Of a stretch of DNA of 64,000 nucleotides, positions 3,304 through 50,988 are shown piece by piece. The stretch is from Patescibacteria group bacterium (GTDB lineage: Bacteria > Patescibacteriota > Patescibacteriia > JAQUQO01). Both the position numbers and the translations under genes were made by a program. Below the pieces are notes generated by a model that saw only the letters and a program-made list of their open reading frames with translations, was not told where the DNA came from and did no database searches. Each line of letters begins with the position of its first letter. Position 1 is the stretch's first letter. The stretch covers positions 192,942 through 256,941 of the forward strand of contig JAQUQO010000001.1 in assembly GCA_028716045.1 (NCBI GenBank), read 5' to 3'.

Positions 3304-3340
3304 ACACCGCCCTTATTATAAACGGGCGGTTTTTATTTTT
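3304..3340 (+). terminator. Rho-independent terminator
   Basis: accgccc...gggcggt stem followed by a T-run. Confidence 0.6.
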
Positions 3341-3357
3341 GAAAAAATCGCTGATAT

Positions 3358-4968
3358 TTGCTATTATTCATTCATAATATGATTAAACGCGGAAAGATTA
3401 GAAAAAATAAGAACAATAGCCCGTTGGTTTTGATTATTCTTGACGGCTGGGGTTTATCTAAAGAAAAAAAGGGTAATGCCATTGCCTTGGCTAATCCCAA
3501 AAATTTCAATCATTTTTGGGATAATTATTGGCACACCACTTTGTTTGCTCACGGTAAAAACGTTGGCCTTTTGCCAAATCAAGAAGGCAATTCCGAGGCC
3601 GGTCATTTGAATATCGGCGCTGGCAGAATCGTCAAACAGGACGTGGTTTATATTAACGAAGCGATTAAGAACGGAACTTTTTTTAAGAATACCGCTTTTA
3701 AAGAGACCTTAAAATACGCGAAAAAACATAATAGCAAAGTTCATTTAATGGGTCTGCTTTCTAATGGTCAAAGCGCGCACGCTTATCCTTTACATTTATA
3801 TTCTTTATTGAAGTTAGTTCATGAGTCGGGTATAAAAAAAGTTTTTCTGCACCTTTTTACCGATGGGCGCGATACGACCCGCTTTGCCGCTCCGCGGCTG
3901 ATTAAAGAATTAAAACAACGGATGTTTCCAGAACAAAAAATCGCTTCCATCATCGGGCGTTTTTACGCCATGGACCGGAATAAATATTGGGAAAGAACTG
4001 AAGCCGCTTATAACGCTATGGTTTTAGGCAAGGGTCTTAAGGCAAAAAATGAAATGGAAGCTATCACTTCCGCTTATAATCGCGGAGAAACGGATGAGTT
4101 TATCAAACCGACAGTTATCGTTAACGCCGCCGGAAAGCCCTTGACAACGATTGGCGATAAGGACGCCGTAATATTTTTTAATTTACGAAGTGACAGGGCA
4201 AGACAGCTCGCCAAGCCGTTTGTGCAGGCGAATTTCGAAAAAAGTAATGGCCGGGTTTTCAAAAGAAAAAAAGTTTTAAAAAATATCCGTTTTTGCGCTT
4301 TGACTGATTTTGGTCCGGACCTAAATCACATTTGGACGGCTTTTCCAAGCCATAACGTGGAAAAAAGTTTGCCGTTTGTTTTGGGGAAAAATAGTTTAAG
4401 ACAGCTCTATATCGCTGAAAGTGAAAAATACGCCCACATCACTTATTTTATCAACGGTGGCCATGCTGACCCAATCGGTAAAGAAGAGAGAATGAGGATT
4501 CCTTCTCCCCATGTTGACAGTTATGATAAGATTCCAGAGATGAGTGCTTTTAAAATAGCCAGTCGGGCAGTGGGGGCTTTAAAGTCTGGCAAATATAATT
4601 TTATAGCGGTTAATTTCGCTAATCCGGATATGGTGGGCCATACAGGAAATTTAGCGGCCGCAGTTAAGGCCATAAAAGCGGTTGATGAATGTATTGGTAA
4701 AATTTCCCGTGAGGCGGTTAGCAACGGCGGTTTGGCAATTATTACCGCCGACCATGGAAACGCGGAGAGCATGTATGATAAAAGTAAAAAAGAAATTTTG
4801 ACGGAGCATTCAAGAAATCCGGTACCATTTATTTTGGCCGGCAAGAAATATAAATTTAAAAAGGGAAAGAAAATATCCAAAGGTATTTTGGCAGATATAA
4901 CACCGACTATTTTAAAGATTTTAAATATATCAAAACCAAGAGAAATGGCAGGGAAAAGTTTAGTCTAA
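3358..4968 (+). CDS. gpmI: 2,3-bisphosphoglycerate-independent phosphoglycerate mutase (iPGM), paralog 1
   Basis: LIILDGWGL...GNSEAGHLNIGAGRIV; 536 aa. Confidence 0.85.
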   Translation: MLLFIHNMIKRGKIRKNKNNSPLVLIILDGWGLSKEKKGNAIALANPKNFNHFWDNYWHTTLFAHGKNVGLLPNQEGNSEAGHLNIGAGRIVKQDVVYINEAIKNGTFFKNTAFKETLKYAKKHNSKVHLMGLLSNGQSAHAYPLHLYSLLKLVHESGIKKVFLHLFTDGRDTTRFAAPRLIKELKQRMFPEQKIASIIGRFYAMDRNKYWERTEAAYNAMVLGKGLKAKNEMEAITSAYNRGETDEFIKPTVIVNAAGKPLTTIGDKDAVIFFNLRSDRARQLAKPFVQANFEKSNGRVFKRKKVLKNIRFCALTDFGPDLNHIWTAFPSHNVEKSLPFVLGKNSLRQLYIAESEKYAHITYFINGGHADPIGKEERMRIPSPHVDSYDKIPEMSAFKIASRAVGALKSGKYNFIAVNFANPDMVGHTGNLAAAVKAIKAVDECIGKISREAVSNGGLAIITADHGNAESMYDKSKKEILTEHSRNPVPFILAGKKYKFKKGKKISKGILADITPTILKILNISKPREMAGKSLV

Positions 4969-4974
4969 TTAATC

Positions 4975-5047
4975 GCTAATAGCTAATGGACTACGAACTA
5001 CCGTCGAAACTGCTGCCGTAGTCGGTAGTCCATAAGCTCTAAGCTAA
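4975..5047. repeat. Empty copy of the GACTAC-unit palindromic element: gctaatagctaatggactacgaactaccg - loop - cgtagtcggtagtcc...
   Basis: Imperfect hairpin; the left arm is near-identical to the left flank of the four-helix-bundle gene (gctRatagctaa..gactacNgactac). Confidence 0.55.
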
Positions 5048-9268: not shown

Positions 9269-9326
9269 CTTGACCCGTCGGTCGCGACCGACGGGTCTTG
9301 ACGAAATTGTCAAAATGTGATATATT
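9269..9326 (+). promoter_or_regulatory. Hairpin-promoter module, copy A: cTTGAC-[gacccgtcggtcgcgaccgacgggtc]-TTGACG-17-TATATT
   Basis: Perfect 26-bp palindrome 9272-9297; -35 at 9298-9303; -10 at 9321-9326. Confidence 0.6.
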
Positions 9327-19519: not shown

Positions 19520-19577
19520 CTTGACCCGTCAGTCGCGACTGACGGGTCTTGACAAATCCTTCAAAACATGCTATGAT
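19520..19577 (+). promoter_or_regulatory. Hairpin-promoter module, copy B: cTTGAC-[gacccgtcagtcgcgactgacgggtc]-TTGACA-17-TATGAT
   Basis: Perfect palindrome 19523-19548; consensus -35 and -10 with 17-bp spacing. Confidence 0.6.
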
Positions 19578-23315: not shown

Positions 23316-23400
23316 CTTGACCCGTTGGTCGCGACCGATGGGTCTTGACCAGTCAGTCGCGACTGACTGGTCTTGACAGATTTTTAGGGTTTGTTATAAT
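23316..23400 (+). promoter_or_regulatory. Hairpin-promoter module, copy C. Tandem double hairpin (23319-23344 and 23347-23372) sharing TTGAC units, then TTGACA-16-TATAAT.
   Basis: First hairpin preserved by two G-T wobble pairs on the + strand. Second hairpin perfect. -10 at 23395-23400. Confidence 0.6.
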
Positions 23401-27839: not shown

Positions 27840-28250
27840 ATGTTTTTATTTATTAATACAGCCGAAGAAGAGAGATTACTGGCGGGGCTGATTTCCGCTA
27901 CTGGAACAATTTTGAAAGCCGCGGAAATTAAGGAAGGTGCGGAGAGAAGGGAATCGTTGTTAGGGTTGGTTGATAAATTATTATTGGCCAGCAAATTTTT
28001 TTCCGAAAAAATAAAAGGAATTATCGTAGTGACCGGTCCGGGAAGATTTAGCCGTTTGCGGTCAGCTGTTGTTTTAGCCAATACTTTATCTTTCGCTTTG
28101 GGTATCCCCGTGGCTGGAATGAATTTGGAGGAAGTGAAAAATCAAAGCGGTCTTATTAAAAAGGGCATAGCCAAGATTAAAAAAGGAGGGGATACGGTAG
28201 TCGCCCCTTTCTACGGCAAAGAGCCAAACATCACCCGCCGGAAATCTTGA
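27840..28250 (+). CDS. tsaB: Short TsaB (YeaZ)-like protein (t6A biosynthesis partner)
   Basis: IIVVTGPGRFSRLRSAVVLANTLSFALGIPVAG matches the TsaB N-domain GPGSFTGLRIGI..A.GLA region. Confidence 0.55.
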   Translation: MFLFINTAEEERLLAGLISATGTILKAAEIKEGAERRESLLGLVDKLLLASKFFSEKIKGIIVVTGPGRFSRLRSAVVLANTLSFALGIPVAGMNLEEVKNQSGLIKKGIAKIKKGGDTVVAPFYGKEPNITRRKS

Positions 28251-28303
28251 CACGTCGGTCGCGACTGACGTGTCTTGACAAATTCAGCTTTTTATGCTAT
28301 ATT
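28246..28303 (+). promoter_or_regulatory. Hairpin-promoter module, copy D: cTTGAC-[gacacgtcggtcgcgactgacgtgtc]-TTGACA-17-TATATT. The tsaB stop codon lies inside the first TTGAC.
   Basis: Palindrome 28249-28274 closed by one G-T wobble on the + strand; -10 at 28298-28303. Confidence 0.6.
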
Positions 28304-37703: not shown

Positions 37704-38381
37704 ATGGCAGGAGGGGATAAAAAGTTTAATCGCCAGTCGATTCGTTTAAAAAATTATGATTATAGTGAATCGGGATATTATTTCGTAACGATTTGCGTAC
37801 AAGGTAGTAAATGTTTATTTGGCGAGGTGGTTAATGGTGAGGTGATATTAAATAGTATTGGCGAAATGATTAAAAAATGGTGGCTGGAATTAGAAAATAA
37901 ATTTTTCCGCGTTGAATTAGATAAATTTATTGTAATGCCGAACCATTTTCATGGAATAATAAATATAACCATAGGGATTGTAGGGGCAGACCTGCGTGTC
38001 TGCTCTAATCTTAAAAAGGGCGAACACGTAGGTTCGCCCCTACACAATCGCGAACACGTAGGTTCGCCCCTACACAATCGCGAACACGTAGGTTCGCCCC
38101 TACACAATCGCGAACACGTAGGTTCGCCCCTACATGATATTGTAAAATGGTTTAAAACAATGACGACGAATGAATATATTAAAAATGTTAAACAAGGCGG
38201 TTGGCCGCCATTCGATCGGAGATTATGGCAGCGCAATTATTGGGAGCACGTAATCCGTACCGAAAAATCATTAAATAATATTCGTGAATATATACTGAGC
38301 AATCCCGAAAATTGGAGTGGCGAAGCGGAGGATTTTAATGTATTTGTGGGTAAATTTATTGTTAAATCCGCCGCTTTATGA
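37704..38381 (+). CDS. REP-associated tyrosine transposase (RAYT / IS200-like TnpA_REP) with an in-frame repeat insertion
   Basis: YYFVTICVQG ... MPNHFHGII (HuH) ... RNYWEHV (catalytic Tyr). Decapeptide HVGSPLHNRE repeated about 4 times. Confidence 0.8.
   Translation: MAGGDKKFNRQSIRLKNYDYSESGYYFVTICVQGSKCLFGEVVNGEVILNSIGEMIKKWWLELENKFFRVELDKFIVMPNHFHGIINITIGIVGADLRVCSNLKKGEHVGSPLHNREHVGSPLHNREHVGSPLHNREHVGSPLHDIVKWFKTMTTNEYIKNVKQGGWPPFDRRLWQRNYWEHVIRTEKSLNNIREYILSNPENWSGEAEDFNVFVGKFIVKSAAL
38021..38140 (+). repeat. 3.8 tandem copies of a 30-bp unit (cgaacacgtaggttcgcccctacacaatcg), each containing hairpin gcgaac-acGTAG-gttcgc, embedded in-frame in the RAYT gene
   Basis: Read directly; unit length 30 = 10 codons. 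Confidence 0.9.
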
Positions 38382-44583: not shown

Positions 44584-45356
44584 ACATAAGTTTGATAATT
44601 TTGGGGGGTTGTCTTTTAATTTTAATTGTGATTGCCGTGAGAAAATTTCCCAACTTGGCGGCTATTGACGTCAAATCAATACCCGAGGAACAACAAGCGG
44701 AAAAGAAGGAGCAAATTTTGACCAGTCGATTTAAGGGATTACTCGGTAAAATTAAATCTTGGGGTAAAGAGCTTTTTGGGCCTACCAGCGATATTTTAAG
44801 GGAAAGTTTTTGGAGACTGCATAACAAGCTTTTAGATTTGGAAAAAAGATACAAAAAATCCTCTATGGTAACTGCGGAAAATGGAGAAAACATTGAGCAA
44901 AAAATCACTCATCTTTTACGCGAAGCGGAAGAATTAATTAAAGAAAAAAAGTTCATGGAAGCGGAGCAGAAATATATCACGATTATTAGTTTGGATATAA
45001 AAAATACCGAGGCCTACGAGGGGCTGGTAGGGATTTATATTGAGGGAAAGGAATACGAGCAAGCTCTTCAGACGCTTGATTATTTGATTAAAATCAATCC
45101 GCAAAATTTTGTTTATTATATTGAACTGGGAGAAATTTTTAAGATTCTGGGCGATAAGGAAAAATTATTGGCCAATGCCAAATTAGCGGTTAAATCTTCG
45201 CCCCATAACCCTCGCACGCTTGATTTCCTTTTAGAATCTGCTATAATAGGAGAAAATAAAAAATTAGCCGAGGATACTTTGAAAAAATTAGAAGAGGTAA
45301 ATCCAGAAAACGAAAAATTATCGGAATTTAAAGAAAGGATTAAGGAAATAAAATAA
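44574..45356 (+). CDS. Membrane-anchored TPR-repeat protein
   Basis: N-terminal TM then TPR-like helical repeats. Confidence 0.55.
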   Translation: MLINISLIILGGCLLILIVIAVRKFPNLAAIDVKSIPEEQQAEKKEQILTSRFKGLLGKIKSWGKELFGPTSDILRESFWRLHNKLLDLEKRYKKSSMVTAENGENIEQKITHLLREAEELIKEKKFMEAEQKYITIISLDIKNTEAYEGLVGIYIEGKEYEQALQTLDYLIKINPQNFVYYIELGEIFKILGDKEKLLANAKLAVKSSPHNPRTLDFLLESAIIGENKKLAEDTLKKLEEVNPENEKLSEFKERIKEIK

Positions 45357-45357
45357 T

Positions 45358-45470
45358 GCCGTTGTAGCCCGCCCGGCACGCCTACGGCGAAGCCGTGGCG
45401 GACGGGTTCAGTTGGTAGGGCGGGGCGAGCAGTTGGCTGACCAGCCTTTGGCTGGGACTAATATTTATTC
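45358..45470 (+). repeat. Partial 5' copy of tRNA-Thr(GGU) (gccgttgtagc ... tcagttggtag) interrupted by a 39-bp GC-rich imperfect hairpin
   Basis: The first 11 nt and the D-loop segment are identical to the tRNA at 45479. The insert cccgcccggcacgcctacggcgaagccgtggcggacgggt is about 75% GC. Confidence 0.55.
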
Positions 45471-45478
45471 GTTTATAT

Positions 45479-45551
45479 GCCGTTGTAGCTCAGTTGGTAG
45501 AGCAACTCCATGGTAAGGAGTAGGTCCGCGGTTCAAGCCCGCGCAACGGCT
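45479..45551 (+). tRNA. tRNA-Thr (anticodon GGU)
   Basis: Hand-folded cloverleaf: acceptor gccgttg/caacggc, anticodon loop aTGGTaa, T-loop ttcaagc. Confidence 0.75.
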
Positions 45552-45653
45552 CAGAGGCCTTTTTAAAAAATATTTTGTAGGTGCGATACCGCTGTCGCAC
45601 CTCTGTTTTAAGATAAAAGAGCGACAGTTTTGCCTGCCCGCCAGTCGCTAAGT

Positions 45654-45726
45654 GCCGAGGTAGCTCAGCTGGTAGAGCAGCAGTTTTGTAAACTGCGGGT
45701 CGCAGGTTCGAATCCTGTCCTCGGCT
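45654..45726 (+). tRNA. tRNA-Thr (anticodon UGU)
   Basis: Acceptor gccgagg/cctcggc, anticodon loop ttTGTaa, T-loop ttcgaat. Confidence 0.75.
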
Positions 45727-45759
45727 CTGGTTCAGTAAGTAAATCAATTGCTCCTTTTC

Positions 45760-45830
45760 GGTTTCCGCCAAAGGCGGACCCGGTCGGATGACCGGGCGAA
45801 TCCGACGGGTGGCTTCAGATTATTAATTAA
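45760..45830 (+). repeat. GC-rich nested hairpins (ccgccaaaggcgg; gacccggtcggatgaccgggcgaatccgacgggtgg) resembling an expanded version of the GTCGCGAC-core hairpin arms
   Basis: Arms gacccggtcgg / ccgacgggtgg read directly. Confidence 0.4.
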
Positions 45831-46026: not shown

Positions 46027-46097
46027 CTCGGGGGGTTCGTATAATGGTAGTACAGGGGTCTCACCCGTCAGTCGCGACTGACGGGTGTCTCCAAAAC
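46027..46097 (+). pseudogene. Partial 5' copy of tRNA-Trp (acceptor through anticodon loop) with a 25-bp GTCGCGAC-core hairpin (46063-46087) inserted in the anticodon loop
   Basis: ctcggggggttcgtataatggtagtacaggggtctc + acccgtcagtcgcgactgacgggtg + tctccaaaac; the flanking tc(tc) is duplicated. Confidence 0.6.
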
Positions 46098-46101
46098 TTT
46101 T

Positions 46102-46353
46102 ATGTATTATATTTATATTCTACATATAGAAGGGATTAAGGGTAAAAATTTTTATATTGGTTATACTGCGGATTTGAAAAATAGACTTAAGGAACATTTA
46201 CTAGGGAGAGTTAGAACAACCAGAGGTAGAAACCCAAAATTAATTTATTTTGAAGCTTATGGTGGTAAATATCTAGCTTTAAAAAGAGAAAAAGGTTTAA
46301 AAAATAGTGGTTCCGTTTATAATGCCTTGTTGAGACGTTTAAGTTTAAAATAA
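46102..46353 (+). CDS. Small GIY-YIG nuclease-superfamily protein (YhbQ/UPF0213-like)
   Basis: YYIYILH..GIKGKNFYIGYTADLKNRLKEH..G.....RGR.P.L.Y.E......AL..E..LK matches the YhbQ-type GIY-YIG pattern. Confidence 0.7.
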   Translation: MYYIYILHIEGIKGKNFYIGYTADLKNRLKEHLLGRVRTTRGRNPKLIYFEAYGGKYLALKREKGLKNSGSVYNALLRRLSLK

Positions 46354-46359
46354 AAACTC

Positions 46360-46433
46360 GGGGGGTTCGTATAATGGTAGTACAGGGGTCTCCAAAACCT
46401 CTAGCGTGGGTTCGATTCCTACACCCCCTGCCA
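46360..46433 (+). tRNA. tRNA-Trp (anticodon CCA), 3' CCA encoded
   Basis: Acceptor ggggggt/accccct (G1-U72), anticodon loop ctCCAaa, T-loop ttcgatt. Confidence 0.75.
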
Positions 46434-48147: not shown

Positions 48148-48212
48148 CCCGCCGGCGGATGGTAGTTTTGATTTGTCTTTTACCACCCGCCATTAAACCG
48201 GCGGGTTTTTTG
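48148..48212 (+). terminator. Extended hairpin terminator (cccgccgg ... ccggcggg then TTTTTT)
   Basis: Read directly. Confidence 0.55.
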
Positions 48213-48219
48213 TTTATAT

Positions 48220-48294
48220 TCTGGGGTAGTTTAACGGTAAAACGCTGCACTGTTAATGCAGTTAGTGGAGGTTCGACTCCTCCCCCCAGAGCCA
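48220..48294 (+). tRNA. tRNA-Asn (anticodon GUU), 3' CCA encoded
   Basis: Acceptor tctgggg/ccccaga, anticodon loop ctGTTaa, T-loop ttcgact. Confidence 0.7.
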
Positions 48295-50927: not shown

Positions 50928-50988
50928 ACAATATCACAAACTTAGAAATTTGTCAAGGCCAGTCAGTCGCGACTAACGGGTCAAGCCC
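50928..50988 (-). promoter_or_regulatory. Hairpin-promoter module, copy F (minus strand; degenerate hairpin, TTGACA-17-TATTGT)
   Basis: Reverse complement reads cttgacccgttagtcgcgactgactggccttgacaa...; weaker -10. Confidence 0.4.

Follow-up and report, generated by a model that had tools for sequence, protein, structure and literature searches.

tRNA gene remnants with GC-rich hairpins and a minimal GIY-YIG nuclease gene in a tRNA cluster of a Patescibacteria group bacterium

Results

The tRNA cluster described here, from a Patescibacteria group bacterium, contains broken pieces of older tRNA genes next to intact genes for the same tRNAs, and these pieces are interrupted by GC-rich hairpins or by a palindrome. 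At the tRNA-Trp gene, a gene for a minimal GIY-YIG nuclease lies between the broken and the intact copy. The host genome was read in one 64-kb stretch, here called the window (64,000 nt of contig JAQUQO010000001.1, assembly GCA_028716045.1; ~41% GC), and the relatives were read as locus contigs, labelled L###. Comparison of these sequences shows that remnants with hairpins are found in loci from across the Patescibacteria, in many cases accompanied by a tiny nuclease gene. Our favoured reading, to which we give an even chance, is that positions 45358-45830 and the tRNA-Trp locus 600 bp downstream are layered scars from repeated breaking and rebuilding of tRNA genes by small selfish cassettes.

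Contigs of relatives were obtained through homologues of the tetratricopeptide repeat (TPR) protein encoded upstream of tRNA-Thr(GGU), which gave 40 species-level loci, plus contigs of relatives. Genes for tRNAs were called with ARAGORN and with the Rfam/Infernal tRNA covariance model. Four are present in the window, namely tRNA-Thr(GGU), tRNA-Thr(UGU) and tRNA-Trp (Table 1), and tRNA-Asn (48220-48294). Insert junctions could be read exactly, because the intact tRNA supplies the uninterrupted sequence.

The tRNA-Thr(GGU) gene and its split 5' remnant

Upstream of the intact tRNA-Thr(GGU) gene, positions 45358-45421 repeat tRNA positions 1-25 of this gene, split by a 39-nt hairpin. The stretch 45356-45368 (ATGCCGTTGTAGC) is identical to 45477-45489 (13/13), and 45408-45421 (TCAGTTGGTAGGGC) matches 45490-45503 at 13 of 14 positions. 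The insert between them (45369-45407) has 79% GC and a predicted single-stranded DNA fold of -15.4 kcal/mol (z = -3.0 against shuffles). These matches bear out an earlier sequence-only reading of this DNA, in which the gene was said to be preceded by its own 5' fragment, split by a GC-rich hairpin. The split pattern, GCCGTTGTAGC-N20-50-TCAGTTGGTAG, occurs once in the window and in none of 100 shuffles; therefore the similarity extends beyond the 11-nt acceptor string, to which the same reading allowed that it might be limited.

The fragment begins 2 nt past the stop codon of the upstream TPR-repeat gene. An intact tRNA-Thr(GGU) gene is found at the fragment's place in L006 and L139, 3 nt past the TPR stop codon, and the fragment itself is found at the same place as in the window in the closest relatives, L004 and L005 (TPR proteins with 67% and 65% identity). 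Over the relatives compared, the distance from this stop codon is 1-3 nt. In L004 and L005 the fragments carry shorter CCGCC...GGCGG hairpins at the same insertion site as 45369-45407; among close relatives the hairpin at this site measures 16, 20 and 39 nt, and its sequence also differs. The segment GGCGGGGCAGG plus CAGTTGG of L005 corresponds to the debris at 45422-45456 of the window. Since relatives have the intact gene at the fragment's position, the fragment would be the 5' end of the old gene, and therefore the intact gene 121 nt downstream would be its replacement. On this comparison, the fragment is better explained as a displaced part of an older gene copy than by recombination between tRNA genes seeded by the hairpin, as suggested earlier, and no sign was seen that hairpins seed the duplications.

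A misassembly origin of the fragment was rejected, because the fragment and its hairpin are identical in three assemblies from separate sequencing runs (the window, L002 and L003). Contigs end inside the fragment and tRNA region in L002 (the organism's second sample) and in L004 and L005, where the short-read assemblies are broken by these repeats.

Promoter-like hexamers upstream of the fragment at 45220-45247 are a candidate promoter. A second set, at 45327-45354, was set aside as a poorer candidate, since its start would fall inside the fragment, and is probably AT-rich noise. A role of the remnant hairpins as intrinsic terminators was also rejected, as no T-run follows them, except at the separate hairpin 3' of the intact gene (45579-45609). 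In the compact clusters of the relatives L014 and L025, adjacent tRNA genes are 1-4 nt apart.

The tRNA-Thr(UGU) gene and the remnants around it

The intact tRNA-Thr(UGU) gene lies between two pieces of another copy. The upstream piece (45618-45632) aligns with tRNA-Thr(UGU) 5' halves found in L041 and has the same terminal base, and a CCTGCC spacer precedes the intact gene. Downstream, positions 45739-45814 read GTAAA...TCGGTT (TCCGCCAAAGGCGGA CCCGGTCGGATGACCGGG) CGAATCCGACGGGTGGCT, where the part in brackets is a double hairpin, and in the predicted fold the T-stem TCGG/CCGA closes around this insert (45764-45796). The last stretch, 45797-45814, is identical at 17 of 18 positions to the 3' ends of intact tRNA-Thr(UGU) genes in L006 and L041. 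An insert of the same type is present at the same T-loop site in L038, and GGATGACCGGGCG is common to the window insert and to a pseudogene of L006.

The acceptor strand of the 3' remnant (GGGTGGC) is mismatched to the acceptor of the live gene (GCCGAGG/CCTCGGC), and therefore the live gene is a different allele inside the older one. As judged from these alignments, the live tRNA-Thr(UGU) sits nested in remnants of a different, older allele. The hairpins that the sequence-only reading had placed at 45760-45830 are real (45764-45796, -14.9 kcal/mol, z = -5.9), although their description has to be changed: the structure at 45780-45810, likened there to an expanded GTCGCGAC hairpin, is made of a T-arm remnant and the double hairpin, and its supposed right-hand arm of GTCGCGAC type, CCGACGGGTGG, is tRNA sequence (T-stem and 3' acceptor strand).

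In about two dozen related loci a tRNA-Tyr(GUA) gene lies between the two tRNA-Thr genes. It is missing from the window, where 45553-45653 holds only the terminator-like hairpin and the tRNA-Thr(UGU) remnant.

The tRNA-Trp locus and its palindromes

The same arrangement had been pointed out for tRNA-Trp, and it was confirmed: a remnant identical to the intact gene at 36 of 36 positions is followed by a palindrome, the rest of the anticodon loop, an open reading frame (ORF) and the intact gene. Palindromes of the ACCCGTCAGTCGCGACTGACGGGT family occupy the same tRNA-Trp site in L132, L135 and L139, and the family is present at a TCCA target in L020, L031, L052, L053 and L058. Altogether, TCGCGA-centred 24-nt palindromes interrupt the tRNA-Trp anticodon loop in at least 10 organisms, in either orientation and with target duplications of 4-5 nt (GTCTC or TCCA). 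The arms differ among genomes and yet stay complementary, with 6 of 10 pairs changing on both sides and 96% of cells paired, in a set partly selected for being palindromic. With inverted repeats, duplications (GTCTC, TCCA or CTTG) and multiple copies, these palindromes resemble miniature inverted-repeat transposable elements (MITEs).

The window contains seven copies of the 24-nt palindromes, where none are expected. In 675 kb they were found only in tRNA-Trp remnants and, in this genome, directly upstream of -35 boxes. The six other copies in the window, of sequence ACCCGTCRGTCGCGACYGACGGGT, are at 9273-9296, 19524-19547, 23320-23343, 23348-23371, 28250-28273 and 50958-50981 (minus strand). 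Their flanks read CTTG/.../CTTGACA, followed by ~17 nt and a TATAAT-like box, and this places every copy directly upstream of a -35 element. The L10 leader has two tandem copies in front of it. Within the host genome alone, a change in one arm is matched in the other (ACCAGTC..GACTGGT and ACACGTC..GACGTGT).

Several relatives show further variants of the tRNA-Trp locus. The palindromes of the 5' and 3' tRNA-Trp remnants of L135 (~1440-1470 and ~1860-1885) are mutually reverse complementary at 23 of 24 positions. Two different dead tRNA-Trp 3' alleles, each with an anticodon-loop palindrome, lie behind the live gene in L139 (2815-2960). Two tandem tRNA-Trp 5' fragments are present in L006 (4977-5200), each ending GGGGTCT/TGTTACG-N16-TATAAG; this junction of remnant and downstream sequence is a promoter-like site, which recalls the GGGT/CTTGACA junctions of palindrome and promoter in the window.

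Two derivations of the palindrome arms were considered and rejected. An origin from the tRNA-Thr 3' end, with which they share the 9-mer CCGACGGGT, was judged coincidental because the arms differ freely among genomes, and an origin as P-nucleotide repair scars was discarded because the arms do not repeat the flanking target in inverted form.

The GIY-YIG nuclease gene and its bounded units

The ORF at 46102-46353 encodes a protein with a match to Pfam PF01541 (E = 3e-11, 43.8 bits against a cut-off of 22.6). The catalytic-motif residues Y5, Y18, G20, R28, H32, E51 and R62/E63 are invariant in 9 homologues, and a profile of these homologues retrieved from the PDB the UPF0213 proteins 1zg2 (3e-11) and 1ywl (5e-10), and SLX1 (6e-5). 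By profile similarity, the nuclease groups with the structure-specific SLX1 and with UPF0213, and not with the DNA-binding homing enzymes. Enzymes of the Seg/I-TevI type have a catalytic and a C-terminal DNA-binding domain, whereas the 83 aa found here are a catalytic core only. A minimal Slx1-like branch of GIY-YIG proteins has been described (PMC1564403). NCBIfam contained no family for this protein, and a scan of viral contigs returned no GIY-YIG relatives.

The position of the gene is strict in the loci collected by synteny. In 391 kb, 12 GIY-YIG ORFs were found, every one of them on the same strand as an intact tRNA gene (Trp, Tyr or Thr-GGU) and upstream of it, and in all 12 loci a 5' fragment of that tRNA is also present upstream of the intact gene. 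The presence of GIY-YIG genes at the same syntenic site is patchy among related loci. In L038, a GIY-YIG homologue occupies the tRNA-Thr(GGU) gap, and behind the live gene comes the 3' part of the outer gene, which has a double hairpin in its T-loop. Close homologues (59-73% identity) have the tRNA-Trp arrangement of the window, and one Moranbacteria genome has the identical 24-mer palindrome. The hairpin families and their positions recur alongside GIY-YIG genes in distant organisms.

An independent sample of 80 metagenomic GIY-YIG homologues gave 78 usable loci. A tRNA was present within 400 nt downstream in 16 of them, 12 of which also contained an upstream fragment of the same tRNA. The loci with an upstream fragment involve Trp, Ala, Val, Gly, Ser and Glu tRNAs; a Gln locus has a downstream 3' fragment instead. 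A mirror form, with intact tRNA, GIY-YIG gene and 3' fragment in this order, was seen in a few loci.

Some of these genes have clear boundaries. In four loci, of tRNA-Ala and tRNA-Val, CCCTCAC...GTGAGGG inverted repeats enclose the GIY-YIG gene and form units of 283-304 nt, in which the inner parts of the repeats vary between units yet remain complementary. These units come with a 9-nt duplication of tRNA positions 3-11, and their break, after ..TAGC, is at the position of the tRNA-Thr(GGU) insert of the window. Two other GIY-YIG units are at non-tRNA sites, with a TGAA duplication. One contig, L061, contains solo hairpins of 36 and 100 nt with the same CCCTCAC...GTGAGGG termini as the GIY-YIG units. 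The 23S rRNA gene of this contig contains a GIY-YIG ORF and the 100-nt hairpin, and the 36-nt solo hairpin is upstream of the gene (1276-1311, 2059-2158, 2501-2740); L061 connects the tRNA-associated units with the known non-intron rRNA insertions in bacteria of the Candidate Phyla Radiation (CPR). In L039 (5669-6431), two 100%-identical units are repeated in tandem before an intact tRNA-Trp with a period of 336 nt, each composed of leader, tRNA-Trp positions 1-37, a 22-nt palindrome and the GIY-YIG gene, and their identity suggests a very recent amplification.

Table 1. Coordinates of tRNA genes, remnants, inserts and the nuclease gene in the window
Feature	Position	Strand	Remarks
Older tRNA-Thr(GGU) remnant, tRNA positions 1-11 (GCCGTTGTAGC)	45358..45368	+	Identical to 45479-45489
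Composite hairpin insert, CCGCC...GGCGG core, inner ACGGC-GAA-GCCGT	45369..45407	+	39 nt, 79% GC
Remnant continued, tRNA positions 12-25	45408..45421	+	13/14 identical; repeat family D5
More GC-rich debris: GGGGCGAG, second CAGTTGG D-loop copy (45430-45436), hairpin CCAGCC-TTT-GGCTGG (45441-45455)	45422..45456	+	
Live intact tRNA-Thr(GGU)	45479..45552	+	ARAGORN; Rfam tRNA model, 66.9 bits
Terminator-like hairpin, then T-run, 3' of tRNA-Thr(GGU)	45579..45609	+	
Older tRNA-Thr(UGU) 5' remnant, positions 21-35 (AGAGCGACAGTTTTG), ending inside the anticodon at G35	45618..45632	+	87% identical to 45674-45688; repeat family D14
Spacer CCTGCCCGCCAGTCGCTAAGT between 5' remnant and live tRNA-Thr(UGU)	45633..45653	+	Resembles L041 spacer CCTGCCTGCCTAAGCCGACCCAT
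Live intact tRNA-Thr(UGU), acceptor GCCGAGG/CCTCGGC	45654..45727	+	ARAGORN, tRNA model
Older tRNA-Thr(UGU) 3' remnant, from GTAAA... on the 3' side of the anticodon through the 5' strand of the T-stem to TT in the T-loop	45739..45763	+	Middle diverged
Double hairpin insert in T-loop, between T55 and C56: TCCGCC-AAA-GGCGGA and CCCGGTC-GGAT-GACCGGG	45764..45796	+	-14.9 kcal/mol, z = -5.9
End of older tRNA-Thr(UGU), CGAATCCGACGGGTGGCT: rest of T-loop, T-stem 3' strand, acceptor 3' strand	45797..45814	+	
tRNA-Trp 5' remnant: 3-nt leader and positions 1-33	46027..46062	+	36/36 identical to 46357-46392
Perfect 24-nt palindrome ACCCGTCAGTCGCGACTGACGGGT in anticodon loop, GTCTC duplication on both sides	46063..46086	.	
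GTCTC duplication and remaining anticodon loop and stem (GTCTCCAAAAC); tRNA-Trp remnant ends	46087..46097	+	
83-aa minimal GIY-YIG nuclease gene (Slx1/UPF0213-like), between remnant and live tRNA-Trp	46102..46353	+	Pfam PF01541
Live intact tRNA-Trp	46360..46433	+	ARAGORN, tRNA model

Recurrence in related loci and insert sites

The order TPR gene, tRNA-Thr(GGU), tRNA-Tyr, tRNA-Thr(UGU), rpmG and tRNA-Trp is widely kept among relatives. A survey by exact k-mers for same-strand self-fragments (at least 11 nt, within 600 nt of a tRNA) found them on 35 of the 103 tRNAs in 45 loci, and the controls gave 1 (reverse complement) and 4 (reversed). The most elaborate arrangement was found in L041, in which three copies of a tRNA-Thr(UGU) 5' half with the same 23-nt spacer precede the intact gene, and 3' halves follow it, each after an inverted-repeat spacer; all the halves break between G35 and T36. 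In L008 and L031 an intact tRNA-Thr(GGU) with inverted-repeat flanks lies inside a split older copy, with overlaps of 2 and 4 nt, and L006 contains a tRNA-Thr(UGU) pseudogene with at least four hairpin inserts. The hairpin-bearing tRNA copies that were examined are truncated or split, each adjoining an intact copy.

Among 31 catalogued insert sites, 27 are in loop or linker positions and four in the D-stem or T-stem, and the density of GC-rich hairpins within 300 nt of tRNAs is 6.4 times that found elsewhere; both statistics pool coding and intergenic DNA and count some inherited events as independent. The CCGCC...GGCGG single or double hairpins include both tRNA-Thr inserts of the window (45369-45407 and 45764-45796), and the double hairpins of tRNA-Tyr fragments are conserved in four genomes. 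The sequence-only reading had proposed that hairpins repeatedly target the 5' halves of tRNA genes. Recurrent insertion in partial copies, at preferred sites, was seen in the window and in many relatives, but the restriction to 5' halves did not hold, since 3' remnants are hit too (window 45764-45796, L029, L038, L135 and L139).

A further hairpin family, CCCGCCCGCATYGCTACGC...GCGTTGCGGGCGGG, was found in four organisms (L093, L104, L006 at 3314-3362, and L050 at 4986-5029). In the first three it is inside a tRNA 5' fragment, in L093 and L104 it lies directly upstream of a GIY-YIG gene, and in L050 it is in a fragment downstream of the intact tRNA-Thr(GGU).

Scoring with the Infernal tRNA model, proposed as a check by the sequence-only reading, recovered the three intact genes (45479-45551, 45654-45726 and 46360-46430) but not the fragments, which gave no match to the model even at E <= 10. 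No Rfam family accounted for fragments or hairpins at gathering or permissive thresholds, and neither the window nor 11 related loci matched covariance models of group I and II introns.

A RAYT-like gene in the window

A protein of 225 aa that resembles REP (repetitive extragenic palindromic)-associated tyrosine transposases (RAYTs) is encoded at ~37704-38381 (+), tightly packed between a glycosyltransferase gene and holB. It scores 25 bits with Pfam Y1_Tnp and 58 bits with NCBIfam REP_Tyr_transpos, below the cut-off of 80. The hairpin scans of the window listed no GC-rich hairpin beside this gene. Of the REP tags, CGTC forms part of the palindrome arms, and GTAG belongs to the D-arm of the tRNA.

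Discussion

Under the favoured reading, a small selfish cassette would enter a resident tRNA gene at a loop-encoding site (D-arm, anticodon loop or T-loop) and would bring a whole tRNA or the missing part, so that a working gene is re-created beside the displaced piece. Autonomous cassettes would encode only the minimal GIY-YIG nuclease of Slx1/UPF0213 type, placed for read-out from the tRNA promoter, and in the window this form would survive at tRNA-Trp only; the tRNA-Thr(GGU) and tRNA-Thr(UGU) loci would be old events in which the nuclease gene was lost, leaving displaced 5' and 3' pieces only. The nuclease could make a structure-specific nick in hairpin-extruding tRNA DNA at loop-encoding sites, and repair of the break may then copy the cassette, with the nuclease gene and/or a tRNA part. 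A live copy that is cut again and repaired from the upstream repeat could give rise to tandem arrays, and the remnant may serve as a 5' leader, through which nuclease gene and tRNA are expressed from the old promoter. The GC-rich palindromes and hairpins would be non-autonomous miniature relatives or companions of the cassettes, which use the same structure-prone sites, and they would persist in dead copies only, because a hit in a live copy would be lethal. The sequences themselves show the remnants, their nesting, the insert sites, the target duplications, the inverted-repeat ends, the strict placement of the GIY-YIG genes and the identical tandem units; the part played by the nuclease and the mobility of the cassettes are inferred.

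A broader claim is advanced only tentatively. These cassettes could represent a new class of autonomous elements of ~0.3 kb, whose sole gene is a minimal Slx1-type GIY-YIG and which are recognised by DNA shape (co-varying inverted repeats or palindromes) and not by sequence. They would enter tRNA and rRNA genes at loop sites and restore the tRNA that they break, with the GC-rich hairpins as their miniature non-autonomous forms, and serial invasions would drive the turnover and the horizontal replacement of tRNA alleles in Patescibacteria.

Several observations count against the selfish-cassette reading. Both tRNA-Thr loci of the window are devoid of a GIY-YIG gene, a coding remnant or clear inverted-repeat ends, and their link to GIY-YIG cassettes would come by analogy with L038 and other genomes. 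The CCGCC-type hairpins, including 45369-45407, have no target duplication (0-nt overlap at most sites), unlike the palindromes, and the RAYT-like gene of the window could mobilise hairpins independently. A DNA-binding domain is missing from the 83-aa protein, whose family is not known for mobilising DNA, and for 62 of the 78 metagenomic homologues the 400 nt downstream contain no tRNA. The sequence of the supposed target is retained in the live tRNA, with no visible immunity, and no empty-site polymorphism was seen, the three assemblies of the organism being identical. Finally, the arm co-variation was read in palindromes partly chosen as such, and the survey, hairpin-density and insert-position counts overstate independence, because detection was by exact k-mers and many inserts in different genomes may be inherited.

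Ordinary decay, joined by unrelated hairpins, is the alternative to which we give the most weight, and it is nevertheless considered unlikely. Fragments would be produced by tandem duplication, or by homology-facilitated illegitimate recombination after DNA uptake, which would occur at tRNAs because no other anchors are as well conserved; GC-rich REP- or MITE-like hairpins would accumulate in any dispensable DNA, perhaps through the RAYT-like transposase, and GIY-YIG genes would merely sit behind strong tRNA promoters. This fits the presence of a RAYT-like gene in the window, the lack of target duplications at CCGCC-type hairpins, as expected of insertion of the IS200/REP type, the foreign-looking allele of the live tRNA-Thr(UGU), and the fact that most GIY-YIG homologues are not beside tRNAs; unequal crossing-over can also yield tandem arrays. 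Decay does not account so readily for the association of all 12 GIY-YIG genes in the TPR-fetched loci with a fragment and an intact tRNA, nor for GIY-YIG genes bounded by inverted repeats and target duplications, with solo hairpins that have the same termini. Distant organisms, too, have GIY-YIG genes accompanied by the same hairpin families at the same positions, the RAYT-like score is under the family cut-off with no GC-rich hairpin detected beside the gene, and nested inserts with inverted-repeat flanks are not given by tandem duplication.

A selected RNA structure, in which fragment and hairpins act as a 5' leader, a 3' stabiliser, an operon insulator or a decoy for the folding and processing of the tRNA precursor, seems improbable as the origin of the pattern, although such a role could be a secondary use. 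Given the promoter-like hexamers at 45220-45247, the fragment is probably transcribed with the tRNA, and its start 2 nt past the TPR stop codon, the strong folds, the persistence of a hairpin at this spot in relatives with TPR proteins 65-67% identical, and the conservation of the double hairpins of tRNA-Tyr fragments in four genomes all agree with a function in RNA. On the other hand, relatives with compact clusters do without the fragment, hairpin sequence and length (16, 20 or 39 nt) vary among close relatives, no T-run follows the hairpins and no Rfam family matches them, and the nesting, the target duplications and the GIY-YIG genes are left unexplained. It is very improbable that functional tRNAs come from the hairpin-bearing copies by removal of the inserts from the RNA, as in rRNA intervening sequences or archaeal tRNA introns. 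The inserts are in loops, and complementary GC-rich flanks recall the split tRNAs of archaea, but the copies examined are truncated or split and adjoin an intact copy, no group I or II intron was matched, and we know of no bacterial tRNA splicing endonuclease. Chance similarity or misassembly of repeated tRNA sequence is virtually excluded: assemblers struggle here, as the broken contigs of L002, L004 and L005 show, but the split pattern was absent from all 100 shuffles, three assemblies agree, and analogous structures are found in dozens of unrelated assemblies.

Attachment-site scars of lost integrase-driven elements, such as prophages or islands, are also very improbable. Partial and complete direct copies of a tRNA are the classic signature of such elements (PMC9897764), and they are present here. 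However, the remnant-to-live gaps measure only 57 nt (Thr-GGU), 21 nt (Thr-UGU) and ~260 nt (Trp) in the window, where their sole gene is the 83-aa GIY-YIG; ORF and Pfam scans of gaps of 57-330 nt found only GIY-YIG and no integrase, and this explanation was rejected on gap size and content. The duplicated parts are also often 5' parts, and the live gene has nested remnants both before and after it.

Comparison with known systems

No account of hairpin-bearing tRNA remnants, or of tRNA genes with a GIY-YIG gene nested in them, was found in open-access papers and preprints. Archaeal split and multi-intron tRNAs (Nanoarchaeum, Thermoproteales) offer a likeness: their halves are broken in the anticodon loop, with complementary GC-rich sequence after the 5' half and before the 3' half, and inserts occupy D-, anticodon and T-loops, as here. 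In the present loci, by contrast, an intact copy is always present, and the halves surround the live gene and are not joined.

Fragments of tRNA genes at attachment (att) sites result from integrase-mediated integration of prophages and islands (Williams 2002, as cited in PMC9897764). As in the systems described there, the invading DNA restores the interrupted gene and tRNA genes are preferred targets; here, the intervening DNA is 57-330 nt without an integrase, duplication affects 5' and 3' parts equally often, and the remnants, which carry GC-rich hairpins, can lie both before and after the live gene. Phage T4 SegB, a free-standing GIY-YIG homing endonuclease, cleaves a tRNA region and thereby secures preferential inheritance of its gene and flanks (PMC2330249). 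In both cases a GIY-YIG nuclease gene is embedded among tRNA genes, but nucleases of the SegB type are members of the homing-endonuclease/UvrC branch with a DNA-binding domain, whereas those found here are ~80-aa cores of the Slx1/UPF0213 branch (PMC1564403). Duplication of gene parts and hairpins are not features of Seg homing, and no phage relatives were found.

A parallel within the phylum is found in rRNA genes of CPR bacteria, which contain non-intron insertions encoding GIY-YIG proteins and, at the tips of stem-loops, short insertions that lack an ORF (PMC11270868); that paper makes no mention of tRNA. The likeness covers phylum, protein family, the absence of intron features and a location at the tops or bases of structural-RNA stem-loops. 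The interrupted rRNA gene stays in use, whereas the interrupted tRNA copy is dead and has a fresh copy beside it. Patescibacteria tRNA genes can contain group I introns at position 35/36 (PMC13011429), which resemble the inserts in phylum, in their place in the anticodon loop and in being missed by standard tRNA finders; the inserts differ in matching no intron model, in being hairpins of 19-60 nt or whole tRNA/GIY-YIG units, and in that the interrupted copies are fragments.

REP elements and RAYTs, CGTC-tagged REPs, Rickettsia palindromic elements and MITEs (PMC3733652) are likewise short, dispersed GC-rich palindromes with variable complementary arms, and the RAYT-like gene of the window and the CGTC in the palindrome arms add to the resemblance. 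They are set apart by the 4-5-nt duplications made by the TCGCGA palindromes, by the lack of a hairpin seen beside the RAYT-like gene, by the location of the inserts in RNA-gene remnants and, in this genome, directly upstream of -35 boxes, and by the termini that solo hairpins share with GIY-YIG units.

If the selfish-cassette reading is right, tRNA genes of minimal-genome bacteria would be battlegrounds of tiny selfish cassettes rather than static housekeeping loci, into which foreign tRNA alleles are sometimes brought. It would also give a function to the widespread orphan family of bacterial UPF0213/Slx1-like GIY-YIG proteins, a tRNA counterpart to the unexplained non-intron rRNA insertions of CPR bacteria, and a bacterial parallel for the debate on the origin of split and intron-bearing tRNA genes. 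Such loci would break assemblies, and could mislead tRNA annotation, tRNA counts and the boundaries of mobile elements in metagenome-assembled genomes.

Other observations

Upstream of tRNA-Asn, positions 48149-48219 contain CCCGCCGGCGG and CCACCCGCC-ATTAAACC-GGCGGGT, followed by a T-run, and share the 8-mer GGTAGTTT with the tRNA. This sequence may be a decayed remnant or merely a terminator.

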